NCBI GenBank assembly: GCA_043228905.1
Contig: JBHGNT010000002.1
Location: 16,306,001 to 16,370,000 of the forward strand
Direction of reading: 5' to 3'
DNA: 64,000 nucleotides
Source of the DNA: Azolla caroliniana
Lineage: Eukaryota > Plantae > Polypodiophyta
Position 1 is the first letter of the stretch. Every line of letters begins with the position of its first letter. Both the position numbers and the translations under genes were made by a program. Positions 308 through 48,578 of this stretch are shown one piece after another. A model generated the notes under the pieces. The model had not been told where the DNA came from. It ran no database searches and saw nothing but the letters and a program-made list of their open reading frames with translations.

Positions 308-332
308 GGGTGAAAGCATGAGAGTGGAAACA
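308..332 (+). repeat. left terminal inverted repeat
   Basis: Pairs with 9277-9301 at 23/25; followed by the TAGCTAATTAGCTA motif at ~352-365. Confidence 0.85.
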
Positions 333-673
333 ATTAGCTATGTCCTTGACATAGCTAATTAGCTATGCAAAAAGCTACCATTGATAAATAGTCATTTTAG
401 TAAAAAGCCATCATTAATAAATTAACTATGCAAAAAACTATCATTGAAAATACTAGAGTGTTTTAATTACATATGTAAATGAGTGCCATAAATGTGCAAC
501 ATAAACGTGCAACATAAATTGATATGTGCACCATAAATGTGTACCATAAATTATATATCAAATTCTTAGGTCCATTATGCATGATCCTTTGCCACATCAT
601 GTAGGCCATCTCTAGTTGAGTATTGTGTGTTAGTTGCTACCACTGTTGCTAAACCCTATCGAGTCCACCTGCC

Positions 674-1034
674 GCCACTCTACACTCAAGGGCCGCTATT
701 GTGCGTTCCAAGCATCATCAAAGAGCTGTTCAATCTGACGGGGTTCTCTTCTCTGTGCCACTCTACACTCAGGGGCCGCTACTGTGCGTTCCAAGCATCA
801 TCAAAGAGCTGTTCAATCTAACGGGGTTCTCTTCTCTGTGCCACTCTACACTCAGGGGCCGCTACTGTGCGTTCCAAGCATCATCAAAGAGCTGTTCAAT
901 CTAACGGGGTTCTCTTCTCTGTGCCACTCTACACTCAGGGGCCGCTACTGTGCGTTCCAAGCATCATCAAAGAGCTGTTCAATCTGACGGGGTTCTCTTC
1001 TCTGTGCCACTCTACACTCAGGGGCCGCTACTGT
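674..1034. repeat. 83-bp tandem repeat, ~4.3 near-identical copies
   Basis: CCACTCTACACTCA recurs at 675, 758, 841, 924 and 1007, which explains the repeated small ORFs in the track. Confidence 0.95.
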
Positions 1035-1327
1035 CCAGTCTTGGATTGCTTCCACATTTCGATTTGACGGAGTTCACTCATCCAACGACAACATTCTACA
1101 CTCAATTGTCACCATTGGTAGGTCCTGGATCACCTCCTCAACTGTTCGATCCAACGGAGTGAACTCCTCTACTGTTCGGTCTTGGATTGCAATAACTTTT
1201 TTGTCTATTGATTATCTTGTGTATTGTTGTGTCTAATCTTGTGTATTGTGGAATATTTTTGTGTATTGTTGTTGCCCATAGCCATCTTAAATTTTATTTT
1301 ATTTTTCTGGAAATTTAGGGTTTTAAT

Positions 1328-4300
1328 ATGTCCAGCCAAATGGAAGGGGAAGAAGGGTGTTTAGAATTACCCCTCAATGATCATAAGGATAGGGATGATG
1401 CTATCAGGACACAACAAGCCATACGAAACTATTGGGCAGAAAAAAAAGGAAACATCGTCAATTGTTGAAGGATACGAAAGCCACACTTAGTAAAGGTAAG
1501 GATAGTTTAGCTGAGAATGTAAGTAATGTGACTACCATCATAGAGAGAAAGGTTGTAGACTATTTCAATGTTCAAACCAAGCACATCAACAATGAAAAAA
1601 AGAAGGTAGTACTTTATGGAATATGTAATGATCCATCGATAAAGGACTTAGTTGATTGTGATGGTCTTAATGCAAACATATCATTTGTTTTAGTAAATAA
1701 TCTTCATAATAGTTTCATATCCATGAGCCGGTTAGAAGATGATCTTGTCTTAAAAAGGTCTAGTCTAATGATGTTACTTAATAGTGATGTTGACGATATA
1801 AACATCAGTGAGCTATCTAAGGTAATTGGTGTTAGTAGAAAAACAGTGTACAATACAATGAACCGTATAATTTCCTCGAGTGAAGGAACTAGTCTACTAA
1901 AGCTAACTACAAGATGTAAGCCAATGACACCCATAACATTTGAAATCAAGGATGTAATCACAATGTTTTGGACTAATGAGAGTAGGGTTTCACCCAATAA
2001 AAAGGATTTATGCAGGAAACGTGTTGGAAGAAATCAATACGAGGAGCATCCCATTCATCTTCTTGATGTACCTCAAGTATTTACATTTATCTCAACATTT
2101 GTTTTGACTCTACACGGAAAGTTAATTAGCTCAGTTAGCAGAAAAGCTAATTAGCTTATCAGTTACATTTACCTCAGTTAGCTACTAGGATAGCTACTAC
2201 ATAAGTAACTGGCTACTCTCAATAGCTACTACCATGATAGCTAATTAGCTATTCTCAATAGCTAATTTAGTTACTACCACATAATTAGCTACCAAAATAG
2301 CTAACTAGCTACCATGATAGCTAACTAGCTACCAGGACAGCTAATTAGCTACTAGGATAGCTAATTTCGTTATTACCAACTAATTAGCTACTAGGAAAGC
2401 TAATTAGCTACCATGATAGCTAATTAGCTACTAGGACAGCTAATTAGCCACCATGATAGCTAATTAGCTACTAGACTAGCTAATTAGCTACCATGATAAC
2501 TAATTAGTTACTAGGAAAGCTAATTAGCTACCATGATAGCTAATTAGCTACTAGGACAGCTAATTAGCCACCATGATAGCTAATTAGCTACCATGAGAGC
2601 TAATTAGCTACTAGGACAACTAATTAGCTACCATGACAGCTACTTAGCTACTAGGACAGCTAATTAGCTACCATGGTAGCTACTTAGCTACTAGGATAGC
2701 TAATTAGCTACCATGATAGCTAATTAGCTACTAGGATAGCTAATTAGCTACCATGATAGCTAATTAGCTACTAGGACAACTAATTAGCTACCATGATAGC
2801 TAATTAGCTACTAGAACAGCTAATTAGCTACTAGAACAACTAATTAGCTACTAGGATAGCTAATTAGCTACTAGGATAGTTAGCTAGTTACGAGAATAAC
2901 TAATTCCCCTTTATTACGCAGGTCGATTTATCCATGAGTTATTTATTAGATTCAATATTGTGTCCGAGAGAAACTGACGTTATCTTCCATATTCATAAAT
3001 GTGTCATGGGTTTATGTCAAGATTGTGGTCCTACTAGATTTAGGTGGTGTCCAAATGAATTGAGTAGTGAAATATTGATCTTTGTGAAGTTATTTGAGTC
3101 AGTGAACACCAATTTCGAAGGAAAGGTGTGTAAAAGAAAGGATCTAGTTCGGAAGATGCTTAAACCAAGGGATTTGGTGCCTCTGTTTGTAGTATCTCTA
3201 GGAAAGTTCATTAAACACAACTTCATTTATTCATGGCAGGCCCATCCGTTTAAGACTTGCATATCTGATTTCCCAAATGATGTAGTAGTCTTAGTAGTAG
3301 ATTTCGCAGAGAATTATACTTTCAAGCAGTAGAATGAAATTCAATCTATGCATTGGTGTTCAGTTCAGGTAACCATTTTTGTGCACATAACATATTTTCG
3401 AGTTTCAGGTGATGTTAAAAAAGTAATTCATTTCTTTATTTCTGATGATAAGAAGCATGATACCTTGTTCGTCCAACACTGTTTTAAGTTACATTGGCAG
3501 TGGTTATTAGCTCAACATTACTCAACATTGGGTCTGGTCTGACGGAGCTGCGTCACATCCTACTATAACAAGTTTGGAGATGAGATGGAATTTTTTTGGG
3601 TCTGGCCATGGTAAAGGTGAACATGATGGTGGAGGGGTTGTTATAAAGCGGGCACTTACCCATGAACAACTAAAGACAGATGGTGTGCACATGAATTGTG
3701 CATCACATGTAGTTGAATTTTTAAGAACAAATATGTCAACGAGTGCAACAAGTGTTTATTCCTCGCAAGACCGAGATATCAAACGTGAATTTTGGGAAGT
3801 GAAGATAGATGAAGTAAATAGGGAGAAGACTTGGGAGTGCCAAGGAATTCCCGAATTGTGATCTCTGCATGCTGTTCGCGGTTATTCCAGGTTGGATGGT
3901 CATTGTATTGCGGTTAGAGAATTGACTTGTTTTTGCTTCCAGTGTGTGCAGGGAAATTGGAGATATTGTCTAAACAAAGCATACATTCAAAATTGGGAGT
4001 ATCACACTCTGAATGGTAAGGAAGCAGTTGATGGAGAAACAGGGCAGAATGCTGACTTCACATATGAGGGACTTGGAGATACTTTGAGTGATGTCATGAA
4101 CGTTGGGGATAACTTCGTTGTAAATGCTGAAGAAGGCCATTCAGAGGGTGTTGATTTCTATATATTGAAGTGCACGGTTAGTAAACAGTGTGCAAGGCAG
4201 AATATTGTAGATGCATGGGGAAATTTTGTATCTGCCGGGACATCCTACATCGAAGGCATTTTTTATGCAAAACTAGATGATTACGAATATGTGTACAGGC

Positions 4301-4452
4301 TGTTAGAAGACAAACCAACGGCGTACATGTACTCTCATTTGGTCAGGTGCATCAACGTCCCAATGTCAGAATACAATAGCTGCTCAGGTTTATACACTGT
4401 TGGTGCTAATGTGTATGAATGTATTTACAATAGTATGCCATGGAATTTGTAG
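1328..4452 (+). pseudogene. Sola-like DDD transposase, spliced and disrupted
   Basis: ATG at 1328 with a frameshift in the A-run near 1440. Phase-0 GT..AG intron 2077-2921. Motifs VDFAENYTF, EIQSMHW, ISDDKKHD, WSDGAAS, RWNFFGSGHGKGEHDGGG..IKR and C-terminal CFCxxC. In-frame stops (3330, 3859) and apparent internal deletions. Confidence 0.75.
2124..2905. repeat. intronic array of palindrome TAGCTAATTAGCTA, 20-bp period
   Basis: About 25 regular units at 2381-2880 with 6-bp spacers mostly CCATGA or CTAGGA; degenerate units upstream. Confidence 0.95.
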
Positions 4453-6576
4453 CTACAAGTAGCAATTACCATGTTCTCTTGTAAAACAAACATGTATTTC
4501 GCGAAAACAGTTAAATAATTTTGTTTGAGAATCAATTTCTTGTATACAGTCTGCTTTTTGTGCTTCTTTCTCAATAAAATCATGTCTTTTTTGTTAAGTT
4601 TTAAGTTATAAGTTATAGTGAAATAGTCATCAATAGCTAATTAGTTGTACAAATGCAGCTAATTAGCTGTCAATAGCTAAATAGTCATCAATAGCATGAA
4701 ATCAACAATCTGCAACATATTCCTCAAATTACACAGTAGATAAGTACAGTGGGAACAATTAATTAAATTCTTCATTGAATAATGTCATCTCTTTACATAT
4801 TTATAAATTACCATTGGAAATGTCTACAAATCTCCTATAAACAGCTAAGCTCTTGCTAATCAGTGGAATGAGTCTACATATATTATCCACATATCGAGCT
4901 CGGTATGGAGTCCACAACCATGCACCTAGTTGGCAGCTCACTGTTTGCACCAGGTACTGTTCAGGTATTTCCTCGGGTAGAATGAGACAGCATCTCCGAA
5001 TATTGAAGTAGTGCCAGAAATGTTCTGTATCCAAAATCAATGTGTTGTCGGCATTATATTCAGGCCAAGTAGCCCAAAAATCAAAAAGTCCTTGAATCTT
5101 GCAGCTTCCATTTGCTCACAATTTTCTCATGCCCATTGACCTTTAAAATGACTTCGCAATTTTGGGAAGAATCTTGCTAAACACTTCCACACATCTGATT
5201 TTGGTTTTTCACTCCAAATAAACAAATCAAAGTATTGCACAACCCACTCTAGAAACTGATTCGCGTCCCTCCTTGGCTGCATATATCTCACACTCATCAA
5301 GACTTTATCAAGCTCCAAGATCAAGGCTCTTCTTTCGACTTCTAGTGGTTTAGGTTTCCATTCCTGAAACTGAGCCGCTATTACACCATTTTCTGGTAGG
5401 ACACGATCAATCTCAATCAGCTCAGGTTCAGCCGACACAACTGGCGTCCTTTTCCTCTTCAAACCCCTAGTCGACTGTGTTGGGCCTGGCTTCACATTCT
5501 GGTGCTCTTGTTTTGTCGACTTAGTTATCAATCCTTGAATTACCTCAGTGCATGTAGCTACTGATCTGCTCGATATCAGTCCACTGGTATCACATGTTGC
5601 ATTTACCTGCAACACCAAGTCATCCGTGCAACATGCTTGATCAACTTGTGTGACCAGATCACTTGTGTCAGTTGCTACATCTACTTTCAAGATGGGGCCC
5701 TTTAAACACGCCGCAACATCAACAGTAGCCACACTGCCATTGGCCTTACGAGCAATAGAATCAAACCCTTTAGACTCTGCAACATCAGAAAACACCAACA
5801 TATTCACACTCACAAAGTAACTAACAGTCTCACAAAACAACATCCTGAACATCAAAGAGTTTCAGTCATAGAACAACACTCTTCAAATTATCTTGGAAAA
5901 ACATCATAGAGTTCCATTACATAATGTGGATCAAGCAACAACCAATCTGAGGTTTTACTTGTCCAACAGGATAGTAAAACTTCATAAAACCCTAGCAAAA
6001 TCCCTAAGCTAACAATCATATCCAACTAAACAGTATTTTGCTCCACTACGTCTGGGCCCCTTGACCGAGTAACTGGTCTTGTTCCCGATCGTGACCCCTT
6101 CTTCAGCCTTTTTCTGGTCGGTTCCCCATTTAGCCTTGCTTCTTTCACCCAATGTGCAAGTGTGTCCTCCTCCGACAACCTTCCCATCGCCTCAGCAGCT
6201 AATTGCACATCAGCCATTTCTTGAACTAGCTTTTCAAGTACAGAGGGATCTGTTTGGACATTTTCAGTAGTTGGGCTCGGTGGGGTGGAATCAAGGTCTT
6301 GAGATTCGAAGAAATGTTGCATCAAGTGTTCATAAACACTGTTGTTGTGAACCTCAGTTTTACATGTTGTTTCCACTATTTCATGGCATTTCACATCGTT
6401 GCCTAATTCAGTACATTGTTCCAAAAGAATAGGGTGGAGCTGATCTAAAGGAGATGTGATAGCAGGACTCTTACTTTCAGCCACGTTGGCAGCAGTATCC
6501 TCATCTGTTACAGCGTCATCAGCACCAGACACACCATGTGTCGTCCTTAATCCACAAGATTCTACAATAACATGGC

Positions 6577-7030
6577 AGCTATTTAGGATAGCTAATTAGC
6601 TACTTTACTAAACTATGGTAGAAGCTAGGATAGCTAATTAGCTAGTACGATAGCTAATTAGGATAGCTAATTAGCTAGTACGATAGCTAATTAGCTACTT
6701 TACTCAACTATGGTAGTAGCTAGGATAGCTAATTAGCTACTTTACACAACTATGGTATTAGCTAATTAGCTATGAGTAGCTAATTAGCTAGTAGCTAACT
6801 AGCTACCAGTAGCTAACTAGCTGCCAGTAGGATAACTAATTAGCTAGTAGCTAACTAGCTGCCACTTAGCTAATTAACTACTGTAGTAAACTATGGCAGT
6901 AGCTAATTAGCAAATAGGATAGCTTCTTTAATTAACTATGGTAGTAGCTAATTAGCTACAACGATAGCAGCAAAATAGTTTCCATACTTTTTACGGCTTA
7001 GCTAATTAGAAAAGACTAAGCTTATTAGCT
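6577..7030. repeat. second intronic array of AGCTAATTAGCT palindromes
   Basis: Many copies inside the predicted cargo intron 6563-7045. Confidence 0.9.
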
Positions 7031-8419
7031 ACAGTATGGTATACCTGTTAGTTTTCTCCACTCATTTGGTAGAGTTGTACTGCAATCTCCCAAACAGAAT
7101 GCAGCAATTCGACAGGCATGTTGAAAACAAAGCAGATGGTATGTGTGGTTGCATGGTTGTAGGTGAACCAACAAATACGCAGTTTTGTCCTCCACACCTA
7201 ACCTGCAAGCGATGCAACGTGCTTGAACTGTCAATAAATCATTTTTTGGTTCTCCTTCATTTGGTAAGGGAGCAAGAATGTTTAGGTCCAAATCCTGTCT
7301 GGTCCTTACCATTCCCTCCACAAAATGTAGCTGCTTCTTAAGGCAGCTAACTACCTGTTCTTGATGAATGTATTGTTCCTTCAACACAACAGAGAAATTT
7401 ACCGATTAATTATTCTTGTCTGAGAAAGATACACCAACTTTGCTCAGGAATCGTTAACTTACTTGAAGCTTTTCCAAATTGTAATCTGCAACAGTATTTA
7501 CACCTAGAAAGTCCAGGTTCATTGAAAGAACCTGGAACTCTATTTGCAGTTGTATTTTGCGTTGGGGATCCAGTGGCCCCTCTAATTCAAGCTCCTGTTG
7601 CGCAACCTATTCCAGATAATGCTTGATTAGCACATTTTACCCTTAAAGTTATTTATAACACAATCACATACCAGCAAAACAATAGTTACCTGAATCTTAT
7701 TTCTAATCATTGTAACAACGGAAGTAACTTTGCTCTCCATTGCAGAAGCCATTGTGGCTTTCTCTAAATCAGTCTTAAAAAATGCCAATGTCTCACAGGC
7801 TTCATGGACATTTTTTAGCATATAGCTAACCAATGTCTCACCTGTATCATCGACATTGGCTTTCCTTGGCTGTCGGTGTGGTGTATGCCCCCGGTTTTGC
7901 TGGGAGTCGGCAGTTGCATCAACAGCTGCCATGCTCCAAAATCTGTCTATTTTTTGTGCCAAGGTCCCCATCTTTCGACATCTTTTTACCGATGCCTCAC
8001 CATAGACTGCCCAAGCTACCCTATACATTTCAAGGTCTCTAGATTCCTTCACTGTTTTGCAGTACTCATATGCAAATGCTCTAGCAAATGAAACTGACAA
8101 CTCATTGTTGACTGGGATCTCCTGATGAACTTTCTAGTGCAGCCTCATGCAGTCATCGTACAAGTCGGCTCGTACATGCTTCAGCTTGACCTTGCCTTTG
8201 ACTCTAGGCACTGTATATATTGCCATCCAGTCTACATCACTGATCAATTTATCAGTTAGGACAGTAGTGTCAACACCCTCGAGTGACAGACCATAAGTGT
8301 TGTGGAAGTCCTCCTTTGTCTCGCAAAATTTTGCGAAGTTTAGCACTCTCGGATACGCAGGAACGAGCCATCTGAAATATCATTTCAAAAATCAGAAATA
8401 GTGCAAAATCAGAATATGT

Positions 8420-8775
8420 CAAAATCAGAAACCCCAATCAACAACAACAGAAATAGTGCAAAATCTTTAACTTAGCAAATTAGAAACCCTAATCATAATT
8501 TGTATTCAGAAATTTGAAATCAGAAACCCTAATCAAAATCTGTAATCAAAAGTTTGAAATTAGAAACCCTAATCAAAATCTGTAATTAGAAGTTTGTAAC
8601 CAAAAACCCTATTCAGAAATTCTAATCAGAAATTTATAATCAAAAACCCTAATCAGAAATTTCAATCAGAAACCCTAATCAGAAATTTCAATCACAAACC
8701 CTAATGAGAAATTCTAATCAGAAATTTATAAACAAAAACCCTAATCAGAAATTTCAATCAGAAACCCCAATCATC
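8420..8775. repeat. telo-box-like AAACCCTAATCAGAAAT degenerate tandem array
   Basis: About 10 AAACCCTAA(T)-type motifs inside the predicted cargo intron 8372-8818. Confidence 0.85.
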
Positions 8776-9276
8776 ATTAAAGACAGGATTAAACACAAAA
8801 AAAGTAATATAAACACACCTAATGCTACTCCCCGATCTGCGAGACATCCTTGTATGGGACTCCAAGGACTTCGCCCTATTCGATTTTGGGGAAATATGAA
8901 TCAGCACCAAAGTTCAGACAGTAGTCAAAAAGAAAAAACAAATGTTTGGGGTTTCTGTAACTGAAACATACCTGGATGATGATCGAGCCGGTTCTGTGTT
9001 GTAGCTCTCAATCTGCAATGTCGATTTTCTACTGCTGCGGGAGCTACGTCTGCGTTCATGCTCTGAGTACTCCATCTGCGTTCAAAATCAAACTTAGGCT
9101 AAACAAGAAATTGATGACATTGAAGTCGACCTTAGATGAAGTCTGAAACAAAAGTTCAAATATTTGAGTTTTTTCATAAATTAGTTTTTCAAATATTTGA
9201 TTTTCCCACAAAAAAGACTAGTTAAACAAATAGTTAATTAGCTATGGCCATTTTAGTAGCTAATTAGCTATAATAG

Positions 9277-9301
9277 TGTTTCCACTCGCATGCTTTTACC
9301 C
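9277..9301 (-). repeat. right terminal inverted repeat
   Basis: Pairs with 308-332; preceded by TAGCTAATTAGCTA at ~9257-9270. Confidence 0.85.
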
Positions 9302-10596
9302 TTATACTTTTAACAATTAATGGAAAAAAGAAATTTAATAATTTTCATTCATAAAGGAAAAGAAATTACAATATGTCCCAAGATTGGGATTCAGAAGTTT
9401 TAGGTTTACTAAGATTAATAAAAAAGAAAAATTAGAGGTTTTGAGAGATATGGCTTCCGTAGGGAAAATTAGGGTTTATGGCTTCCGTAAGGAAATTTAG
9501 GGTTTTTGGCTTCATTAAGGAAATTTAGGGTTTTTGAGTGTTATGGCTTTGATAAGATAAGAGAGCTAAGAAGGAAAATAAAAATAAAAATTGAGAGAGA
9601 GAATGAGAGTAGGAAAAAAAAATGAAATTTTATATGGAGTTCTCCGTTGATCATAGCCTTCAATGTTACTTTGCATGCCCACTTTTAGTTGCATGGCCTC
9701 TACTTTTAGTTGCATCCATTTTTAGTTGCATGGCTTTTTCTTTTAGTTGCATGCGACCGTCCACATGACCTTTACTTTAGTTTTCTTTACTTTACTTTAA
9801 TTAGCCACATGATCCTATCATCTGTCTGTCTCGATCGTCACCCATCAAATCCGTCTGGTCCGCGTCCAGCCTCGTCCGGTCGCCGGTTTCGCTCGATCGC
9901 CGGTTGTCAGATCCGCCCGATTTCCGACATCATCTGATTGTCGATTTCACCAATTCCGATTTGCTTACCGATCGGTTCTTGTTTGCTTCCCGACCGGTTC
10001 CGGTTTGCTTTCCGGTTGGTTCCAGTTTGCTTTCCAACCGGTTCCGATTTGCTTACCAACTGGTTCTAATTTTCTTTCTGGCCGGTTCCAGTTTGCTTAC
10101 TGACCGGTTCCGAATTGCTTAACAACCGGTTCCAGTTTGCTTACCAGTCAGTTCCAGTTCCATTACCAACTGATTCCATTTTATTGCCAATCGGTTTTTG
10201 GGAACTTGGCCACATTCATCCATCTAGACAAAGTGGCCAAAGTGCTCTTAACACAAATAAAAAATGAGGGATCTCAATGTGCTTATATAGCTAGGGCCTT
10301 AAGTTTCCTATCTATGTGGGATACTTCAAAATTCTATTTTCCCTATTTTCTCATGCTTCATGTCCACCTAACTTGATATGTAGTTGTCTATTTTGTATAT
10401 AGTAAAATGCGTTTGAAACTCTTGAGTACATCCATATTTCTATAACAAGCTACTAATCTAATCTAAAATAATTATTTCATTATTTTTCTACATAGTTTTC
10501 ATATCGTGTGTGAAAAACCACACGACATTCACCCCCACCAAACCTGCACATCCACCGGTATGTGCCAATTGCAGTGAGGTTCCTCTTTTGAATTTT

Positions 10597-13199
10597 CTAC
10601 TTCATCGATGTTTCTTCTTTATACTCGAACCGTTGTTGCCATCCGATCCACCATATTCTTCGTTCACTCTTTGAATTTCCATGACTGGTTGCCATGGCTC
10701 CCTTTTCTCCTGTAGAGCGTAATGTTTCATGCTTTGTGCATGTGCCACCTTCATCTCGACCATCTCCTTGGTCATCTAACTTTCTTTTATCATTCTTTCT
10801 TGTTCCATGCATGCCTTTCGAAGACCTTATAGAAATACTATTCTTGAGTACTCTTAGCGATTCATTTTTTAGCGGCATGCTCTCCTCTAGGTCCTTAAGT
10901 GACCACATCGCATGCTTCCCACTTTGTCCACTTTTGTGGTATACTCTCGTCTTGGAGTTGACTATGACTTCTACACTAGTATTATCCTTGTTAGATTTTG
11001 TGATCACATCTTTCATATCCGCTTAGCCCACTTGGCCCATATCTTTGCTTTTTGAGGTTTGCTTGGTCTCTTTGTCGCACACATTAGCTTTTGTCTTCGT
11101 GCTTTGCTTGACCTCTTTGTTACACGTATGGACTTTCGTCATTTTGCTTTGCTTTACGTCCTTGTTGCACACATTGGCTTTAACCCTTGCTTCCTCGCCG
11201 CCACCATCCTTCGCTTGGGTCTTACATAGGTTAATGCCCAAGTCTCTCAAACGAGTGTGGAGGAATTTTGTAGTTTGGCATTGCCTTTGTCGTGCTACCC
11301 TTAGCCATTTCCACCTTATGGTTGTCCACATTGGCTTTGACCTTTGTTTCTTTGCCGCCACCTTCCATCTCTTGGATCTTACATCGGTTAATGCCCAAGT
11401 CTCAAGAACTTTTGTGGGGAAAGTCTCTTCATGATCATCATCTACCCTCTTCATCTTGACGTCTCCTTCTTCTTCGCATGTGTTAGCCTCGGCCTTCACT
11501 TCCTCACCGTCACCTTCCGTCTCTTGGGTCTCACGTTTGCTTTCCGACGTTGTTGAGTGGCGCGTGACACACATGCCAAACGTCGGAATGTGTGCGTCAC
11601 AAGCGCGGACAAGCACCGGGCCTCTATCCACTAGTGGTTATGGATTATGGGCGGCTGAAGTGACGCACTAATGTGGTTAGAGTGAGAGAGAGAGAGAGAG
11701 AAACAAAATTTGAGGAAGTTTTTAAGATAGATAGGTAGATATATACACATCACCAATAAGATAACTAAGTATTCTTATTATTAATTTTCGATTTGATACA
11801 TAGATTGATTCATAGATTGTTTGATTCATCCATTGATTGATCCCCCCCCCCCCCCATTACACAAGCCTTACAAGGGTTTTAATAGGTTTATCTATCCTTC
11901 TAACATGCACAAAACCATGGGCTTGAACCCATGGTTTTCGGGCACACGGTTTTCCTTGTGGCATGCACAAAACCATAGGCTAAAACCATGGTTTTGTGTA
12001 CACGGTTTTGTATGTTTGTTTCCTATGGAATACTAAATATGAGAAGGAAATATACAAAATCTAAAGCACTTAGTAATAGCTTTAGTGGTAAGATAATTGC
12101 TTCCTATCTTAGAAGTGCAAGGTTCAAATCTTGCTTGCACCCTTTTATATGCACTTGAATGTCATCAGATCCTAGGTTAATTTTCATATTTATAATCATG
12201 TGTATAATGTGTGTGGAGCCACACTATTTCACAATTTCTCCCATTGGACACAGAACATCATGACAACGCATTTGCCCAAGTCTCTAGAACAAGTGTGGAG
12301 AAACTCTTGACACGGCCATCCGCCATTGACTCGTCCATAGACACCTCTGACTCGATGTCGTTTTTCGTGGCTATCTCCTCAATCATGTCGGCCTCACATT
12401 TTTTATCTCCCTTGATCATGCAAGCTTTGGTCATGCTTGCACCTTTATCACTTGATGTTGCAGATATGATACGTGTTTCGAAACATTTGTCTTCGCTTGA
12501 AGTGGCATTCGCCACCCTCGATTCATTTGTTTCATTCTTCTCCATTGTTTCTTTGCAAGACGAGAAGGTGTCTTCTTCCACACCTTCTTCCATGGTGTTG
12601 TCATACCGAACTTGGGCCTTCGTATTGGCCATATCATCACTCCACCTTTGTTGGGAGGTCTCTTCTTCTTTGATAACCATTTTAATTGGTTTTGGTTCCA
12701 TTATAAGATTCTCTTTGGCCTCGACTTGCACCTTTAAATTCTCATATGCCTCGTTTATGAAGGCCTCTATGTCGAGTACCATCGAACCTTCCTTCTTCAA
12801 GCTCTCTTCTTTAGGTGGTAGTTTGTAGTTGCTTCCCATCCTCCTTTCACCATCCGTCATGGGTTGTATTGTTGCCGATGAGAATCTTGTCTTCCTCTTA
12901 TCGTGCAGTTGACATACTCTTTCCACGTTCGTCCAATCCTTGGTGAGGCCATTTGCACCATCATCATCCTCAAGTCGGATTCCAATGGCCTTCCTTTCCT
13001 TCCGATCGATTGACTTCACGAACATTAGGACTTTATCCACCCCCACCAATCTTTGATCCCGCTCCGAGAGTTGTGCAAAGCGACACTCAAACTCAACGAA
13101 AGCATGCATGGCACTTTGGTGGGTCTTTAATGATGATACCCATTGGTCGAACTCGTATAGTTTGCATCTCTTCGGCTCTTTGTATCTATATGCCTCCAT
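10597..13199 (-). pseudogene. gag-like ORF with low-complexity tail, interrupted by a solo LTR and a stop
   Basis: ORF pieces 12258-13199, 11023-11550 and 10597-11016 are colinear with the intact 665-aa ORF at 41376-43373 (FAQLSERD..DKVLMFVKSID..DDDGANGLT; RIWWIGW). Confidence 0.75.
11551..12265 (-). mobile_element. solo LTR (715 bp)
   Basis: TGTTG...TGACA termini. TSD ACGT/ACGC. Removing it restores the host ORF. Shares blocks with 16506-17134. Confidence 0.75.
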
Positions 13200-16158
13200 G
13201 AGATATCCTCCTACCGCCTCGTTTCACGTCGGGTTCACCAAAGATGTTGCGAAAATACGACGAGGATACGTGAACTTGAGGCAGGACTCCGGGGCCCCCG
13301 ACCAGAGGATATCACATTTGTGCGTTTATATTTTTAACAATTAACGGAAATAACAAATTTAATAATTTTCATTAACAAAGGAAACGAAATTACAATATGT
13401 CCCAAGATTGGGATTCAGAAGTTTTAGGTTTACTGAGATTAATAGAAAAGGAAAATTAGGGGTTTTGAGAGATATGACTTCCGTAAGGAAAATTAGGGTT
13501 TTTGGCTTCCGTAAGGAAATTAGGGTTTATGAGAGATATGGCTTTCGTAAGGAAAATTAGGGTTTATGACTTCCGTAAGGAAATTTAGGGTTTATGAGAG
13601 TTATGGCTTCCATAAGATAAGAGAGCTAAGAAGGAAAAGAAAATAAAAATATATGGAGAGACAGAGTGAGTGTAGGAAAAAAAAAATATGGAGTTCCCCG
13701 TTGATCATAGCCTTCTATGTTACTTTGCATGTCCACTTTTAGTTGCATCCATTTTTAGTTGCATGGCTTTTTCTTTTAGTTGCATTGCTTTTTCTTTTAG
13801 TTGCATGCGACCGTCCACATGACCTTTACTTTAGTTTTCTTTACTTTACTTTAATTAGCCACATGATCCTATCATCTGTCCGTCTCGATCGCCGCCCATC
13901 CAATCTGTCTAGTCCGCGTCCAGCCTTGTCCAGTCGCCGATTCCGCCCGATCACCGGTTCCGTCCGATCGCCGGTTTTCGGATCCACTCGATTTCCGACA
14001 CTATCTGATTGTTGATTTCGTCGGGTCCGATTTGCTTACCGGTCGGTTCCTGTTTGCTTCCCGACCGGTTCTAGTTTGCTTATCATCCGATTCCAAATTG
14101 CTTACCGACCGGTTTCGGTTTGCTTACCGGCAGGTTCCAGATTGCTTACCGACCGATTCCGGTTTGCTTTCCAGCCAGTTCCAGTTTGCTTACCAGCTAG
14201 TTCCAGTTCCATTACCGGCCAGTTCCATTTTATTGCCAATCGGTTTTTGGGAACTTGGCCACATTCATCCATCTAGACAAAGTGGCCAAAGTGCTCTTAG
14301 CACAAATGAAAAATGAGGTATCTCAATGTGATTATATAGCTAGGGCCTTAAGTTTCGTATGTATGTGGGATACTTCAAAATTCTATTTTCCCTATCTTCT
14401 CAAGCTTCATGTCCACCTAACTTGATATGTAGTTGTCTATTTTGTATGTAGTAAAATGCGTTTTGAAACTCTTGAGTACATCCATATTTCTATAACAAGC
14501 TACTAATCTAATCTAAAATAATTATTTCATTATTTTTCTACATAGTTTTCATATCGTGTGTGAAAAACCACACGACATTCACCCCCACCAAACCACACGA
14601 CAGCGTGGTCGCCTGTGGCGCGTTGTGCAGGACGTTTGGAGGTGGGTCCCGACGACGATTGTCGTTCTGTCGTCGATTGTTCCGCGAACCTCTATAAAAT
14701 TTCTTCTATCGGTTCGTGAATACCGTTGATCGTACCGGTTATCCCAGTCGTCGTCATATTGATCATACTCATCATTTGTTCTATATTGGTCGTCGTGGTA
14801 CTGGTCATGGCGGTCATCTGATCTCATGCGATTGTCGCGGCGGTAACGGTCATCATTACGTCGATAGTCGTCGTCGCGGCGCTGGCTACCCAGAGATCGT
14901 GGTCGCTTGTTTGCCCGATGTCGGTATGACTGACGTTCATCCTGCCAAGAGTATGTATTGTGAAGCTCGATCTGGCAAACCGGAGTCGTCGTTGTGCGGT
15001 TGAGCATGTTGTACTCACATTGTTCGATCGTGTGAGCTCGGGACTGACATATTGGGCAGTGTGGCCAGTGAGGGCACTCGAGAGCCAGATGGCCTGAGCC
15101 TGAGCAAGCCGTGCATTGGAGGGCTTGTCGGAAACGATTGTCCTCCTGAGGAAGGGAGCTTTGCAAAGAGTCCATGGAGAAAGTCGTGTTATGTTCGGTC
15201 CTAGCGATGGCGAGGACACGTGCGATGACTTGCTCAATGGTCTAGTTCGAGAAATTGGTAAGTGCGAGAGTCGTCCGTAGAGGCTCCCGTAGGCTGGACA
15301 GGAAAGTATCCGGAATGTGATGGGCGGAGACATCGTTGGCCAGTTGTCGGTAGAGATCTTGAAACCGGATCGTGAACTGGGCGACCGTCTCGTGAGGTTC
15401 TTGGCTCATGGAAAAGAACTACTGGAGTAGTTCACGCTTCGGAACTTGGCGGTGAAATAATTCTGGAAACTTTGTGCGGACATCCTAAAACGTGTGACCT
15501 CCCCCATGTCGAGGCGGGAGTATCATCGAGCAATCGTGCCATCGAGGGATAAAGCGAACTCCGCGATTTTGGAGGACTCGATTGTTGGGAATATGTCCCT
15601 CCTGTGGGAGGATGATCCGACTGTTCAGAAAGCCAACAGTCAAAGAGTCAGAAAACAAGAGCCGAGTTGATGAGGAACGGTCGAGGCCGAAACCGGAATT
15701 GTGTAAATGGCCAACTCGGGAGACTATATTTGTAAATAGTCTTAGTGTGCGCCCCATAAGGGCTACGTATGTAAATAACCAGAAGGTTGCATAAGTATAT
15801 ATGCAACTAGGGCAAACATGTTGTGAGAGATGCAGGAGTAGAAGTAAAACGACTGTGAGAGAGAGACAGAAGAAGCGTGAGCTGCGCCATAGCTGTGTTG
15901 TAAGAGCCCTTCGTGGTTGTTACACTCGATAGAGTGTTGTAACCTTCTCGGTGGTGTATATCCACTATTTGTATAGTGAAGCTCTGTTCCCGTGGTTTTC
16001 CCCATTTTAGGGTTTCCACGTAAATCTCTGTGTATAGTCGTCTATCTTGTCTTTCTCACATTTTGAGTGTGATTCGTATTTCAACGCGTAGTTCAATTAT
16101 TGTGATTAATTCCGCAACGATTTCTCAACAAACTGGTATCAAAGCTTGAGGTGCAAGC

Positions 16159-19100
16159 ATGGAAGGAGGTGTGAGCGGATTCCCAGGTATGATAGTTCTG
16201 AACTCTCAGAACTATGCAGACTAGAAGATAAAGATGGAAGACCTTCTCATAGTCAAAGATCTGTACAAGCCAGTCGACAGAGCACAAATACCTAGGGGGG
16301 TATTGGAGTCGGACTGGAAGCTTCTGAATAGGAAGGCGGTGGCCACAATCCGACAATGTGTCGATGTAAGTGTCCTTCAGCATGTGGCGAACGACACGAA
16401 TGCCCACGAGATGTGGCAGAAGCTGTCGGGTCTGTATGAGAGGAAGAACGTGGTAAAGAGAACCTCGCTAATGAGAAAAATCGTACGATTGAAATACGGA
16501 GACGGTGTCGCGAAGATTCGTGTGTGCGTGTGCTACTCGAGCGACCACCAGGGTCTTGGCCTGGGGAGGATGTTTGCAGAATTATCGAAGAGATGACGAT
16601 CAATGTAAGATTAGATGAAATTTGTTTACTTGAGAAGAAGAAAGATTGTACACTTGAGAAGTAGAAAAATATGAAGAAGATAAAGACAAATATAATTATA
16701 TTGATGATATGGTGTTGGTGATATCACATATTGAGCCCCCCTTACACAAGCCTAACTAGAGGCTTTTATAGGTCTTTCCATGCTTGTGACATGCACAAAA
16801 CCATGGGCTAAAACCATGGTTTTGTGCACACGGTTTTGCTTATGTCATGCACAAGCCATGGTTTTGTGCACATGGTTTTCTATGGTTGCTTCATATATAA
16901 TTCGTATATGAAAAGGAAATACATACAACATACACTATATGGTAGTTGTCTTAGTGGTAAGGCAATCATCTTGTATCTTAGAGGTGCAAGGTTCAAACCT
17001 TGCTTGCACCCCTCTGTATGAACTCAAGTGCCACTAGGCCTTAGGCTTATTTGCTAAGTGTATGTGCAATGTTGCACATCCTTGGTTTATTCGTCTCACT
17101 CGGTTTCACACCGTAGCCGAAAATCGTCATGACAACGGTGAGAGCATTGTCGAACACATCAGCACGTTCATGGGGTATGTAAATCAACTTGCTGCGATCA
17201 AGTTTCCCCTGGATGACGCAATGCAGGCCATCCTGCTGATGTGTACCCTGCCGAAAAGCTAGGAGAACCTGGTGGTTACTCTCAGCACCTCTTGTCAAGA
17301 AGAGAACTTGTCTTTAGAGACGGTGAAGACAAGCATCCTAAACAAGGACACAAGGAGGAAAGACAAAGGGGTCTTGTCCCAAACGGAGTCGAATCTGACT
17401 CAACACATGGACAGAGGAAGGGACCAGCGAAGAAGAAGTCCACAGCGAACGGACAGATCCCATGCCAGATCGAAGTCCAGAGGTAAGCCTGTGTGCTTCT
17501 ATTGCGGAAAACCTGGACACTTCCAGAAGGACTGTCGACACCTGAGAAAAGACAAGAGCATCGGAAATAATGTCGAACCCCGGAAAATTCCGGATGAAAA
17601 GAACACTTCGGCCATTGCTACGAGCAATGAGGAACTTCTGTTCATATGTGAACAAACAAGTGCAAATCTTGCAAGTGAAGAGTGCACTTGGGTGATCGAC
17701 TCTGGCGCATCCTTTCACATTACTCCATCGAGAGAGTATTTCTCGACTTACATAACCGGGGATCATGGCTATGTAAAGATGGGTGATAGTGGAGAGTGCA
17801 AGATAACCGGGGTCGGAAGTGTGTGCTTAATGACGTCGACAGGGTGTCGACTAACGTTGAAGGATGTTCGACACGTCCCAGATATCAGATTGAATCTGAT
17901 ATCGACTGGAAGGCTTGACGACGAAGGCTACAGTGGTAGTTTTCGGAATGGCAAGTGGAAGTTCTGCCGAGGAAATCTCATAGTGGCCCGAGCTCAGAAA
18001 GAAGGCACATTGTACATGATGCATGCCCGACTATGCAAATCAGAAGTAAACATGGCAGCCGACTCGGCAGAGGAGATATGGCATAAGAGGCTAGGCCACA
18101 TGAGCGAGAAGGGAATGCACCTGTTAGCCGACCAGGAACTTCTATCAGAAGTCAAGGGAGTGCACCTGGAGAAGTGTGTCGACTGCTTAGCCGAAAAGCT
18201 GAATAGGACGGCATTCCACACGAGACCACCGAGGAGAAGAGAAGTTGCACTGGAACTAGTGCACACTGATGTGTGCTATGTGGATGCTCCATCGCATCGA
18301 GGAGGATAGTACTTTGTAATGTTTATTGACAACCATAGTCGGAAGACATGGGCCTTCGTACTGAAGACGAAGGATCAAGTATTGTCGGTTTTCAAGGAGT
18401 TCCAGGCAAGAACCAAAAGAGAGTCGGGCCGGAAACTGAAGGTTGTCCGAACTGACAATGGTGGTGAGTACAAAGGGCAATTTGAGGAATACTGCAAGTG
18501 CCAAGGTATTCGAATCGAATACACAGTGGCAAAGACCCCAGAGTTGAACGAGCTTGCAGAGAGGATGAATCAAACAATCATGGAGAGAGTAAGGAGCATG
18601 CTCTCCCATGCAAAATTACCAAAATCCTATTGGGTCGAGGCGATGTACACAGTTGTTTATCTGATCAACAGGTCTCCCTCAGTGCCATTAAAGGGTGATG
18701 TCCCACAAAGGGTGTGGATAGGGAAGGATGTCTCCTACCAACACTTGAGGGTGTTCGGATGTTTGGCGTATATGCATGTACCAAAGGATCAGAGGTCAAA
18801 GCTCGACAGCAAGTCGAAAGCATGCATATTCATGGGATACTTGAAAGATGAATTCGGCTACAGGTTGTGGGATTTAGTCGACACAAAGGTAGTGAGAAGT
18901 CGGGATGTCATCTTTCTTGAAGATAAGACAATTGAAGACTGGAAGCAACAGAAGTCGGAATCGACTCCCCAGTCAACCTCGACTACCATCGACTTAAGGC
19001 CAAGTGAGTCGTTACTGATAGCTGTAAGGAGACAGTTGGCCGACAGAGCCTAATCCGAGTTGGTCGACTCAGAAAGACCGATAGACTATGAGTCAGAGTC

Positions 19101-20855
19101 TGCAGATCTGCTAAAATCAATTGAGGAATATGAGTTGGAGTTGTCCAACCTGGAGATGTCGATTGATGAGCAGAATCCCGAGCAAAGAGAAGAGTTGGCA
19201 GAGACATCTGAAAAAGAGCCAACAACGAGTGGACGAAGGTACCCACTCAGAGAAAGGAAGGTGCCGATTACATATGCCAGTCAATACATCCTCTTGACTG
19301 ATGACGGTGAACCGGAGTGCTATGAAGAAGCCATTGCCGACGAGAGTAGAGAAAAATGGTTGAACGCGATGCAAGAGGAGATGGAATCCTTGCACGCGAA
19401 TTACACCTACAACCTAGTAGAGCTGCCAAAAGGTAAGAGAGCACTCAGGAATAAATGGGTCTACAAGGTCAAGACTGGAGAAGTCGACAGAAAGCGCAGG
19501 TATAAAGCCCGCATAGTGGTGAAGGGTTTCCAACAGAGGAAGGGCGTCGACTTTGACGAAATATTCACACCAATCGTGAAGATGAAATTGATTCGAACTA
19601 TTCTGAGCATAGCGACCAGCATGGATCTGGAGATCGAACGGTTGGATGTCAAAACTGCATTTCTACACGGGGAGCTAGAAGAAGAAATCTACATGTAGCA
19701 ACCCGAAGGCTTTGAGGAGAAAGGGAAAGAGAACCTGGTGTGTCGACTGAGGAAAAGCTTGTACGGACTGAAACAAGCTCCATGCCAATGGTACAAGAAA
19801 TTCGAGTCCTTCATGATGGAACATCGGTTCCAGATAACACAGGCTGCTCACTGTGTGTTCGTCAAAAGGTACGAGGAAGGAGATTTCTTGATTCTCTTGC
19901 TATATGTTGATGATATGTTGATAGTCAGCCAAGATGCAAGGAAGATTGGAAGCTTGAAGAAAGCTCTCGGCAAATCATTTGCCATGAAAGACCTTGGACC
20001 AGCAAAGCAAATCCTAGGAATGCACATAACCCGAGACAGAGCTCGGAAGGTGCTATGGTTGCCACAACAAAAGTATGTGACGAAGATCCTAGAGAGGTTC
20101 AACATGTCAAACGCAAAGCCGGTCGGCTCAATGTTGTCGACAAATTGCAGACTAAATGCGACGCAGTGTCCGAAAGGGTAGAAGGAAAACGTTGACATGA
20201 AGAAGGTACCATATGCCTCGGCCGTCGGTAGTTTAATGTATGATATGGTCTGTATGAGACCAGACATAGCATTTGTTGTGGGAGCAGTAAGCCGATATAT
20301 GAGTAATCCAGGGAGAGAACACTGGGCAGCAGTGAAGTGGATACTCAGGTACTTAAAGGGCACCTCAGGTGTGTGCCTAAGGTATGGTGTCGAAAAACCT
20401 ATGCTAGAAGGTTTTACCGATTTGGACATGTCATGAGATGTTCACTCGAGCAGATCCACGTCAGGGTACGTGATGACCTACGCAGGGGGAGCAGTGTCGT
20501 GGCAGTCACGACTGCAGAAGTCTGTAGCCTTGTCGACTACAGAGGCAGAGTATATGGCAGCAGTAGAGGCCGGAAAAGAGCTGATCTGGATGAGAAATTT
20601 TCTCACCGAATTAGGCATGAAGCAAATGGAGTTCTTGCTTCATTGTGACAGCCAAAGCGCCATACACCTAGCCAAGAATGCGGCATATCACTCCCGAACC
20701 AAGCACATATAGAGAAGATATCACTGGTTACGAGAGAGAGTTGAAGAAGGAGAGTTTTCTCTCGAAAAGATCCATACTAATGCAATGGATCCGACATGCT
20801 GACGAAGAACCTACCTATGGACAGACTCAAAGTCTGTCGACAAAATACAAGACTG
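16159..20855 (+). pseudogene. copia gag-pol (gag, CCHC, PR, IN, RT, RNase H)
   Basis: CFYCGKPGHFQKDC; WVIDSGASFH; WHKRLGH; VRTDNGGEY; LYVDDMLI; STTEAEY; multiple in-frame stops. Confidence 0.95.
16506..17134 (-). mobile_element. solo LTR (629 bp) in copia gag
   Basis: TGTCGCG...CATGACA termini. Perfect 4-bp TSD ACGG. Removing it restores gag KYGDGESIVEH. Confidence 0.9.
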
Positions 20856-22387
20856 ACAGATTTCCTCCCACATGAGTGAAGGGGGAGTTTGTTGGGAATA
20901 TGTCCCTCCTGTGGGAGGATGATCCAACTGTTTGGAAAGCCAACAGTCGAAGAGTCGGAAAACAGGAGCTAACTTGATGAGGAACGGTCGAGGCCGAAAC
21001 CGGAATCGTATAAATGGCCAACTTGGGAGACTATATTTGTAAATAGTCTTAGTGTGCGCCCCATAAGGGCTACATATGTAAATAACCAGAAAGTTGCGTA
21101 AGTATATATGCAACTAGGGCAAACATGTTGTGAGAGATGTAGGGGCAGAAGTAAAACGACTGTGAGAGAGAGAGAGAGAGAGAAGAAGCGTGAGCCGCGC
21201 CATAGTTGTGTTGTAACAGTAGACGCGAAGAGCCCTGCGTGGCTGTTACACTTGACAGAGTGTTGTAACCTTCTCGGTGGTGTATATCCACTATTTTAGG
21301 GTTTCCGTGGTTTTCCCCGTTTTAGGGTTTCCACGTAAATGTCTGTGTATAGTCGTCTATCTTGTCTTTCTCACATTTTGAGTGTGATTCGTATTTCAGC
21401 GCATAGTTCGATTATTGTGATTAATTCCGCAACGATTTCTCAACATCAATTTTGGCAGCCGCTAACCGCTGCGTCGAGTGGTTGGCCTTCCATGTGGACA
21501 CGAAAGCACGGGTGTGTGATTCCGCATCGGGCCCATCGGTATATCGTGGGTAAGGGTAAGGCATGGTAACGAGATCCGGGTCTTCAGGTAAAGCCGAAAA
21601 AGGGTTAGGGTCAGGTTGGGTGACCTCTAGAGGGCTCGACGGGGAGGCTGGTATGGAATCAACTCGCGACTGGTTATCGGGTGGCGAGGATTGCAACCGG
21701 GGAGCCTATGATCGTTCCTGGAAAGATTGGTCAGTGACTGCCGAGTCGGAAGTTCCTTCGACTAGCTCCGAGCGTCGGGCAGGTGGCCAAGACCGCGTGA
21801 GGTGATTGGGCGTCGTAATGGCGGCTAGAGTTTACCTCCTACGTAGTTCACTGTGACCTTACAGTTGTAACCGGGCGTGCCAAATTGTGTTAACCGTTTC
21901 TAGGTAAACACCTTCGATGAGCCCACAGGCTATCGGTATCAAGGGATCATGTTACGTGGAAGCTTCTTCTCCACTGAGAAGATGATAGGAGAACGAGGAG
22001 CGTACACACGCTACAACCCGTTAGGCATAAACATAGCTCGATTTATGAGCACGGGGAGAATACACAGATAAAAGAATAGTAAGAGCGAAACTTATATTAA
22101 ATGATAAAGCTCACAGTGATTACAGTGCACGGCTCTCGACCAAACACAGTTCGTGCAGAGCTCAGTCCTACAATATTAATCTTGCTAAAAATGATCTAGA
22201 TATTCCCCCCTTGAGGTATGCCGATATCGGTTTATATAGTTTTCCTCTTTAGACAGAGCCGAGCCATCGGCTAATTGTGAGGGCTAAAAACTCGACTATT
22301 TCTAGTTTTACCTATTTCCTCACCTACTATTCTACCTACCGGCGAGTATACATAATGTATTTATATTTCTGGCCTATGGACAACACA

Positions 22388-39270: not shown

Positions 39271-40528
39271 TATCGAGGAAGTTCTGGCTACACGGTGAAA
39301 CAAAGCCGAACGCGTGGGAACGGGTGCTTACACGGATGAAGACAAAAATTTAGCCTCTATGTATGAACACATGTAAATAACATAGGACCAATAAGTACTA
39401 GGGAGTAGGATTTGATGGGAACTTTAAGGTCCCGCATGGATAGAAAAGAAGGGAGTGAGTCTAACATAAGAAGATCGAGGAAATCTTTGTCCGAAGTGGC
39501 CGACTCAACTACCTCATGTGACAACCATCTATCCCCTTGGTCTATAAAAGGAGGGAGAGAGGACTGAGCAGGGATCAACGTTTTGGGAGGACGAAGTGCT
39601 GCCGGTTTGAATGTTGAGCTCTCTCTCTCTCTCTCTCTCTATCTATCTTGTGACGGTTCTGGAAGGAAACCTTTGCTCGCGCAGGAAGCCCGTGAGCTCC
39701 CGACCAGAGGTTCTTCATTCCGTTTCTCTTGTGTGTGTGAGTGTGTGCGAGTGTCTCTCGTGAGTGCTTGGTTCTCTGGTAATCACTTGTTGATTGAGTT
39801 CCCTCTTGTGTTGGGGTTTCTGTGTTGTTCTTACTTGTTGCGTGTTAACCGTAACCAAGCTTGCGTCTTAAGTCCCGTTCAGACCCTTTTTGCGTGCACG
39901 TCCCGACTGCTTCTCGACTTCCCGACCGGGCTTAAACCGGCATAGCTATCCGGACCGATCCGGAGAATCTAACCGAACCGTAACACGAGCCTCCCTTCTT
40001 CCTTTCCGACTCCTTGGTCCGAGACCCCCGCGGTCCCGCCCGCTCTAACACGTGCACGCGGAATACCGCGACATCTTTGGTGAACACGACGTGAAAGAGG
40101 TGGCAGAAGAGTCTAGGATGAGGGGTAGTGAACTGGCGGAGGCGATGGTGGCAACCGTCAAGCGTATAGTGAATGCACGGGAGGGCACGGGTACCCTCAA
40201 CAGGGCCATAGAAGCGATAGTCAGTATGATAGGCTGGTTCAACGGGAAGGACGTGACTAGCTACCTGGAGGCCTATCGGGCCGAGATCATGATAAGGGAC
40301 ATACAAGAGGACAGACAACTGACCGGATTCCCTTGAGTTGTCACGCTGAGCATCCATGTCGAGGTGCGAGCAGATTGTCGTAACTGGGCAGAATTCGAAG
40401 GGCAACTCCTTGAAAGGTACGGCTTCGACGACTTTCTCCGGCTATCGAAGAAGGACTTTATGGATTGGGTCGAGAGCCCCGACAAGGGATAGAATACGTC
40501 AGCTCTACTTCAGGAGTTTGAAAAGCGG

Positions 40529-48200: not shown

Positions 48201-48578
48201 GGTTTTTAAAGCTCTAAATTTAGAGCTTCTACGAGGGAGATATGACGATTAGAAGATCGTTGTATCATAGCTAAGAATAGGAGATGGAAAAGCTGTAAAA
48301 AAAGCGTGGAAAAGAAAGTAAGCGAAACTTATCTACTAGAGGAGAACTTCATATAAAGCAAGAAGAGTGAGGTGGTGAGCAGGAGCCTTTTTTGTGGGGT
48401 TTTTCTTGCCTATTCATGTAGTGCGTTTTTTCTAGTGATCAATTCATCCTTGTAGGCTTGAGTTTATGTATCTTCTTTCTCTTGTTTCTAGGATCATCAC
48501 TCCTTATTAATATATCTTTGTAGATTTGGGTTTCTATATCTTCCTTCTCTCTCTTTTCTATCATCATCTCTCTTTTCA
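45274..48578 (+). mobile_element. young non-autonomous LTR element, probable tRNA-Asn PBS
   Basis: 638-bp LTRs 45274-45911 and 47941-48578, differing at very few sites. TSD CTTAG. PBS TGGCGCTCCAGGGAGGGTCGA 45917-45937. PPT ~47915-47935. Confidence 0.95.
46010..47680 (+). CDS. 556-aa ORF: gag-like N-terminus, acidic linker, in-frame relics of gypsy RT lacking the catalytic core
   Basis: Intact ORF. RT-like IKHHIKL..SLIVVVPK..VNFQSLNDSTKRD.F.LPF.DEILD..VDEAKIDII; no YxDD. Confidence 0.65.
   Translation: MTRYGVRDATDLRRELFQLRMVSPMCYLEYEKTFLDIWSTWIGLVGGVEDVYFKMERFKAGLDPYFQYEVHMKYPRSFHDLLRVCQSYDQQLKKLLFGEAYGLSASYTINPSYNNCGSVMSQQPAYLQCPIQQVPSYHYSNFWSYNDVYEGDSRDNEEEVMNVESPHLVHEDNHDIKNDDVKDESKEIVMRSDVMDGDANVHHVEDIIDTTSDMVVDDEYVQDEMEDMTKEVVDGEVPTTKLQNEEGNLEVIAGDWLLEINACKEALVSAKLQCMKVFMHDLCFGFALSSNKVMWASTLQQQFDQEPRDLLVMHDWSIINLSPSKDPPQLIKCIKEKESSIDIGKQEEESITIDEYSWDRENKSFHMVSKEEEVIEEKSIITLKGKKKMISNDVQGEEDLRFISLFFKFTKLFINEYSQIRVEGIKHHIKLENLKFVSLIVVVPKEKDVNFQSLNDSTKRDLFLLPFRDEILDEMVIHKKQGNVENVVCQEESHVDEAKIDIIQNMTILTSLEALKVFVQKVRSLERFIHMLTCLLLSRVMYHIDLLLFGKLMKIY

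Follow-up and report, generated by a model that had tools for sequence, protein, structure and literature searches.

A 64,000-nucleotide stretch of the Azolla caroliniana genome (contig JBHGNT010000002.1, positions 16,306,001 to 16,370,000; the window) carries near its left end a pair of 25-bp terminal inverted repeats (TIRs, 308–332 and 9277–9301) enclosing two genes, and the locus raises the question of whether the second gene belongs to the transposon and what its protein would do there. Analysis reveals a two-exon transposase on the plus strand and a convergent seven-exon gene on the minus strand, meeting tail to tail at 4452/4801, in agreement with the spliced transposase and the convergent multi-exon gene given in the preliminary description of this DNA. 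The window copy is dead; it belongs to a cut-and-paste transposon that is present in high copy, carries two genes and uses a Sola2-type transposase, and the two-gene composition can be stated with high confidence. The conserved core of the second protein, which the preliminary description did not single out, is predicted from sequence to comprise a novel N-terminal domain (N-domain), a coiled coil and a RING finger, with an FCP1/SCP-fold NIF domain as an optional module; the palindrome arrays running through the element had equally been missed.

Sola2 DNA transposons were reportedly described by Bao et al. in 2009, and their ends follow a rule of short TIRs with 5'-GRG termini. GGG forms the terminal bases both of the window element and of one relative, L002. 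The transposase runs from an ATG at 1328 through a GT at 2077 and an AG at 2921 to a stop at 4450–4452, and its motifs read DFAENY, WSDG and HGKGEHDG. In a by-eye comparison, carrying no profile score, with the alignment in PMC3627910 (like all published sources cited here, accessible in part, so that comparisons refer to the accessible portions), the Sola2 signature motifs SRxxPxKKD, CxxC, DFAENY..Q.EIQS.HW, ISDD..HD, SDG...Q(Y/F)K and HGK..DG.G appear in the same order, bearing out the earlier assignment to a Sola-like element. The short TIRs and an element size inside the 2–9 kb range (PMC10741241) likewise match Sola2. No Pfam family matches the transposase, Pfam holding no Sola family, and the HTH_11 profile reaches E 8e-5, under the Pfam cut-off. 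PIF/Harbinger identity was rejected, since no matching 3-bp target-site duplication (TSD) is present and the motifs are those of Sola2.

Searches yielded 45 transposase relatives among 557 candidates, and 80 transposase loci, drawn from metagenome contigs, were kept; the named relatives derive from Adiantum, Riccia and Klebsormidium. Intact 604-aa exon-2 frames persist in P0217–P0220, and the ratio of nonsynonymous to synonymous substitution rates (dN/dS) for the transposase, 0.28–0.43, is a crude, partly saturated estimate. The viral contigs searched contain no transposase relative. The prokaryote genomes searched contain one fragment, L081:1031–1566, a broken piece of this plant-type transposase in a contig of a bacterial metagenome-assembled genome, likely a chimera or contamination. 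A further homologue search limited to proteins of 1317–3760 aa gave no match and is uninformative. The window copy is decayed, as noted at the outset: its transposase bears at least six lesions, including the exon 1 frameshift (Table 1), a 264-bp gap at 2931 relative to L001, stop codons at 3330 (TAG) and 3859 (TGA) and minor deletions at positions 3516 and 3557, while the second gene is broken by the exon 3 stop, a stop at 5127–5129 and a frameshift near 5091, the latter two in exon 7.

A shared internal motif, even sequencing depth and relatives together identify the 9 kb as one element. The palindrome TAGCTAATTAGCTA occurs in 22 exact copies and in 51 at up to 2 mismatches. All of them (22/22 and 51/51) lie inside the element: near both TIRs, in the stretch separating the two genes and within one intron per gene. 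Neither the element's coding DNA (57% of the element) nor the remaining 55 kb of the window contains any. These copies are tandem-derived and not independent, and no p-value is claimed. Around their transposase exons, relatives carry different repeated motifs of their own, for example TACCATTAA in L002 and TAGTACTAA in L014, L017–L019 and L041. Median depth over second-gene bins relative to transposase-exon bins is 0.87, 0.80 and 0.89 in all three DNA runs, a rough measure taken on contigs; by the same rough measure, depth over both genes lies in the thousands, against about 7–56 for the low-depth contigs listed. The N-domain has 135 relatives, which together with the depth lead to rejection of a single-copy host gene, and depth, relatives and palindrome alike uphold the initial proposal that both genes form one system, as opposed to a host gene or a nested transposable element.

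The relatives extend this association beyond the window copy. Two elements with transposases 47% and 43% identical to P0003 (L006 and L007) contain a convergent NIF exon that passes the Pfam threshold. Among 54 N-domain relatives scanned, NIF shares a chain with the N-domain in two Adiantum models, P0120 and P0178, both combining N-domain, coiled coil, RING-like finger and NIF; the NIF of P0178 is 81% identical to that of L007. Across fern lineages the domain order is kept at about 28–33% identity. An N-domain with a RING lies near the transposase in L041, L077–79 and L080, which fall in three different transposase clades, and the corresponding hhalign scores of 37–48 compare with a shuffled maximum below 17 (20 shuffles each). 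The tree behind these clades is a quick version of 33 of the 80 loci, with near-copies and short loci excluded, and its labels are not evidence of co-evolution. Where at least 1 kb of downstream sequence is available, 12 of 24 loci bear a second-gene trace, distributed as 9 of 10 loci in two fern-like clades versus 3 of 14 elsewhere; in six of these twelve the sign is weak, consisting of an acidic DDxPL motif with a basic tail only, and in one (L050) the N-terminus differs. As a hint only, an N-domain protein (P0075) and a transposase (P0012) are both listed on one 8136-bp contig. Two further arrangements are seen. In L050, a coiled-coil and RING gene (3658–4917) immediately follows the transposase on the same strand, and its N-terminus bears no relation to the domain found in the window. 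In P0104, P0107, P0172, P0182, P0190 and P0194, the N-domain is fused to gag, propeller, nucleotidyltransferase, LTP or fasciclin parts, fusions that are probably mis-joins around insertions.

The ends of the element do not correspond to one clean insertion; an adjacent deletion or recombination between copies would fit. With a 20-nt TIR probe at up to 4 mismatches, the only matches within the 64 kb are the two element ends, joined by the 5' end of L002. No TSD is found at the element ends, the left flank reading CTAG and the right flank TTAT (4-mers adjoining four termini: CTAG, ATAA, TTAT and TTGT), because the two flanks derive from different sites. The empty site of the left flank runs on as GTAACTAC in two sequencing runs, whereas the right flank is a long terminal repeat (LTR) whose partner at 13319 starts 7 bp earlier; the right TIR occupies the place of those missing 7 bp. 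The mismatched flanks weaken the TSD test only. Two joints in contigs of run X20, an RNA run by presumption only that carries another organism label, also touch the element's layout: joint 370/9264 ties both ends together, possibly as a miniature inverted-repeat (MITE-like) derivative, and joint 3936/5161 is a deletion derivative linking transposase and NIF parts in the order seen in the window.

The second gene is spliced. X20 joints 7604/7688 and 8874/8971 show CT..AC ends, with the introns bounded by 7606/7690 and 8875/8972 skipped at GT-AG, and joint 8374/8823 lies a few bases from a predicted intron; exon 2 came to light through these joints. Run X21 contains no splice joint, and run X22 contributes no sequence to this comparison. 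In three lineages, represented by the window, L006 and L007, the NIF reading frame opens at a phase-1 acceptor, an agreement that favours a spliced fusion of exon 6 to the NIF exon, a splice that we infer from the reading frames. Several features accompany this gene. Intron 2 contains a 13-bp repeat array with AAACCCTA (8420–8776), and exon 6 carries (I/V)TRS, which often also occurs at the end of the relatives' convergent gene. In L002:4283–4588, L003:7110–7601, L013–L015 and L017 that end combines an acidic region with a DDxPL-like motif and a tail of basic residues, and it presumably resembles nucleosome acidic-patch-binding motifs.

The N-domain model is confident (predicted local distance difference test, pLDDT, 94.6; predicted template modelling score, pTM, 0.87), and lysine or arginine occupies six of its columns in at least 60% of sequences. 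The Atlas search returns Transposase_28 at 0.88, as a lead only. Compared with the L050 N-terminus and with the C-terminal VDWA segment of P0136, the domain scores at shuffle level. The segment that follows matches coiled coils only. The finger reads C-x2-C-x17-C-x-H-x2-H-x2-C-x10-C-x3-C in the window, corresponding to C3H2C3 spacing; the C3H2C3 pattern recurs in P0154, P0162 and P0199, and in P0178 without the first ligand, so that the RING-like Cys/His cluster originally reported is recovered as a pattern. By profile, zf-RING_2 stays sub-threshold in the window piece (E 0.043) and under the Pfam cut-off throughout, so that the profile check proposed for the second protein gives matches above the cut-off for NIF in relatives and sub-threshold ones for RING.

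The NIF domain passes the Pfam cut-off in 4/4 intact relatives tested and is sub-threshold in the window piece (E 0.022). Its fold aligns with SCP1 (1t9z) at Z 15.6 and a root-mean-square deviation of 2.7 A over 147 residues, and with UBLCP1 (3shq), TIM50 (4qqf) and CTDNEP1 (8ujl) at Z 14.3–14.7, confirming the FCP1/NIF domain with ELDKV that had been read from the sequence. Active FCP1/SCP-type enzymes carry a DxDxT/V motif (PMC9426563). Here that motif reads ELDKV in the window, E(L/I)DK(V/L) in 17 of 21 motif-bearing proteins, DLNGV in the other four and DLNGL in L006, and the paired Asp motif reads DTE. This family-wide change of the catalytic motif leads to the prediction that the domain is inactive; decay as the source of ELDKV was rejected, the motif being present in intact and divergent relatives. 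Of the catalytically dead phospho-CTD binder proposed earlier, the predicted loss of catalysis is therefore retained, and specificity for the RNA polymerase II C-terminal domain (CTD) is not indicated, because SCP1, UBLCP1, TIM50 and CTDNEP1 score alike, within 1.3 Z of one another. L002 and L003, although nested among NIF-bearing elements, have no room for NIF; together with the in-frame TAG after window exon 6, this makes NIF, part of the original two-gene picture, likely an optional terminal module.

What the second protein does can be proposed with less assurance. Tentatively favoured, at somewhat less than an even chance, is a self-addressed anti-silencing adaptor binding the element's own non-coding palindrome arrays, a mechanism whose functional steps we infer throughout. 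The basic N-domain would read the palindrome, and the coiled coil would oligomerise on the arrays. The RING-H2 finger could then recruit a ubiquitin-conjugating enzyme (E2), leading to ubiquitination of a nearby chromatin or silencing factor, while the dead FCP1-fold domain, where present, may serve as a phosphopeptide-binding adaptor choosing substrates. The outcome would be escape of the element from host silencing.

Several observations weigh against this adaptor role. The N-domain is only mildly basic (median net charge +3, range -8 to +12, 67 sequences) and matches no Pfam family in 57 members scanned, DUF1985/PMD included, no PDB structure by Foldseek (0 at E<=0.001), nothing above Z 2.7 in the VIA fold search and nothing in the viral set BFVD; the VANC21 structure (9LNK) is not among the fold hits, its place in the library being unconfirmed. 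A new fold does not follow from the missing match. With a helix-turn-helix (HTH) segment of its own, the transposase could itself be the palindrome reader. Even in relatives, zf-RING_2 reaches only E 6e-4 to 8e-4, under the Pfam gathering cut-off, and an in-frame TAG follows exon 6, ahead of the putative splice to exon 7. Of the 24 loci whose sequence continues for 1 kb or more downstream, the other 12, mostly decayed and outside the two fern-like clades, bear no second-gene trace. Methylation footprints bear on protection of old copies. In favour of the adaptor, CG is depleted in the element (observed/expected 0.43) whereas CHG is not (1.03 vs 0.76 in the rest of the window); this CHG signal is not specific, because two copia open reading frames (ORFs) of the window keep CHG too (1.04 and 0.93). 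Relative to L001, with polarity assumed, C-to-T changes are in excess at CHG (20/152 vs 12/641 at CHH), so this copy was apparently not protected. The footprint as a whole is neutral to mildly unfavourable to protection of old copies.

The strongest competing explanation, still an unlikely one, is a protein-only ubiquitin ligase (E3) adaptor that makes no DNA contact and either degrades a host silencing factor or tunes the amount of transposase in trans, leaving the transposase to read the palindromes. The HTH-like segment of the transposase and an N-domain without a known DNA-binding fold would suit it, as would the L050 gene, whose coiled coil and RING follow an unrelated N-terminus, so that the RING may be the conserved point; the conserved basic columns of the N-domain speak against it, as does the sole Atlas lead, Transposase_28 being a plant transposable-element (TE) accessory domain. 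Slightly less probable again is a transposition cofactor. The Harbinger Myb protein and CACTA TnpA act in this way, and the second protein could similarly bind the subterminal palindromes and the transposase to build a synaptic complex, with RING and NIF as regulatory add-ons. Palindrome copies do lie 20–45 bp inside both TIRs (352 and 9257) and the gene accompanies three transposase clades, but most palindromes sit deep in introns, away from the ends, many relatives lack such a gene within the available sequence, and animal Sola2 elements are, to our knowledge, described with a transposase only. Modelled TnpA–TnpD complexes (PMC13547354) add to the case for a cofactor. A captured passenger or separate nested element without a role for the transposon is very improbable: the missing TSD, the differing flanks and the variable position and orientation in moss-like loci (in L077 it precedes the transposase on the same strand, in L080 it lies 6 kb downstream, and such adjacency may be fortuitous) would allow it, against which stand the absence of visible separate ends, the same palindrome in introns of both genes and at both ends, the equal depth, the splicing and the conserved domain order.

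Compared with known systems, the element departs from Sola2 by having a second, convergent gene that is conserved and arrays of a palindrome in its introns, and its TSD is unreadable in this copy. The general statement that Sola elements carry a transposase only gives way to published cases, Fanzor1 in Sola2 (PMC3627910) and a ParB-methylase gene in Sola1-1_Ec32 (PMC12477816). Sola2-Fanzor1 elements of Dictyostelium and Polysphondylium (PMC3627910) resemble the present one in placing a Sola2 transposase and a second multi-exon gene inside short TIRs; their second gene encodes a TnpB-like protein, unrelated to the protein here. Sola1-1_Ec32 of Ectocarpus (PMC12477816) and the Plavaka PAG cassette (10.1101/2025.02.11.637652) share with it an accessory gene on the opposite strand, for which binding and modification of the element that carries it have been proposed, and the inverted-repeat arrays near PAG3 of the latter are akin to the palindrome arrays. 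Unlike these systems, with their ParB, methylase, SET or 2OG-oxygenase domains, the second protein contains no DNA-modifying enzyme and instead combines a RING with a dead FCP1-fold.

The adaptor reading draws its closest parallel from VANDAL/VANC (PMC5735166, PMC13547354), in which a TE-encoded accessory protein joins a globular domain to a coiled coil. Family-specific short motifs form tandem arrays in non-coding parts, a layout that the palindrome copies share, and the motifs bound by VANC lie in introns and elsewhere in the non-coding DNA of its own VANDAL family (PMC5735166). In contrast, VANDAL belongs to the MuDR elements and to eudicots, the second protein has no detected homology to VANC or MAIN, and VANC is described, in the accessible portions, without RING or phosphatase domains. 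MAIN/MAIL1 with PP7L (PMC7156037) likewise pairs a TE-derived domain with a phosphatase-type domain in TE control; unlike the element here, that module belongs to the host, acts in silencing and uses a PPP-family phosphatase, with no evident homology. Thus second genes in Sola elements are already known, while no report of an N-domain, RING and dead-phosphatase partner was met in the literature searched, Repbase Reports and subscription journals lying outside that search.

Table 1. Features of the transposon, in window coordinates.
Feature	Position	Strand	Description
Left TIR	308..332	+	25 bp, begins GGG; L002 5' end similar
Subterminal palindrome copy TAGCTAATTAGCTA	352..365	.	14 bp; second subterminal copy at 9257-9270
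83-bp tandem repeat	591..1088	.	about 5 copies, upstream of transposase
Transposase exon 1	1328..2076	+	HTH-like segment, Sola2-type SRxxPxKKD motif; frameshift near 1439
Transposase intron	2077..2921	+	holds 20-bp tandem array of palindrome
Transposase exon 2	2922..4452	+	DFAENY, SDG and HGKGEHDG catalytic motifs and C-terminal part; several lesions
Second gene exon 7 (last)	4801..5776	-	disordered linker, then FCP1/SCP-fold (NIF) domain with ELDKV
Second gene exon 6	6032..6561 (lower end approximate)	-	acidic disordered region, basic tail at end; in-frame TAG 6026-6028
Second gene intron with second palindrome array	6562..7044	-	
Second gene exon 5	7045..7378	-	RING-H2-like finger
Second gene exon 4	7463..7606	-	coiled-coil region; upstream intron skipped at GT-AG in X20
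Second gene exon 3	7690..8371	-	novel domain of about 145 aa (VYQxxPxNxE..FA..F..VAWA) and coiled-coil start; premature TAG 8134-8136
Second gene exons 1 (9075-8972) and 2 (8875-8819)	8819..9075	-	Ser/Arg-rich; intervening intron skipped at GT-AG in X20
Right TIR	9277..9301	-	25 bp, 2 mismatches vs left TIR; abuts LTR without its first 7 bp

The remaining window sequence consists of LTR retroelements. Directly adjoining the transposon, the element at 9302–14601 has LTRs at about 9302–10527 and 13319–14601 with 84.5% identity to each other, and its minus strand holds a gag-like ORF. A Copia-like element with 89% LTRs (15582–21445) is followed by a chromodomain-bearing Gypsy pol remnant (22635–24622), and two young short LTR elements (40528–44133 and 45274–48581; LTRs 99.9% and 99.5% alike) each carry one ORF of 600–675 aa without a Pfam match.

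Taken beyond the window, the findings would fit an old Sola2 lineage shared by ferns and bryophytes and equipped with its own counter-silencing device, whose palindrome-reading domain, of undescribed fold, would bring a RING ligase and a CTD-type pseudophosphatase to the element; this broader proposal is rather doubtful. In such a device, silencing factors would be removed or diverted by ubiquitination, not by DNA modification. If true, land plants would have invented VANC-like self-addressing a second time, independently, and here with an E3 built in. Because this fern family is present in high copy, conserves its accessory gene and has motif arrays of its own, it provides a second case that can be tested directly; it also offers a domain that folds confidently without a structural match, and hints that TE defence may be linked to ubiquitin and phosphatase scaffolds. 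Among the 'hypothetical genes' of ferns, many members of this family are thereby shown to be carried by transposons. SOLA elements of fern genomes have been counted without structural description in the accessible text; some of these genomes are rich in them (PMC6786969), an abundance for which the system described here may account.

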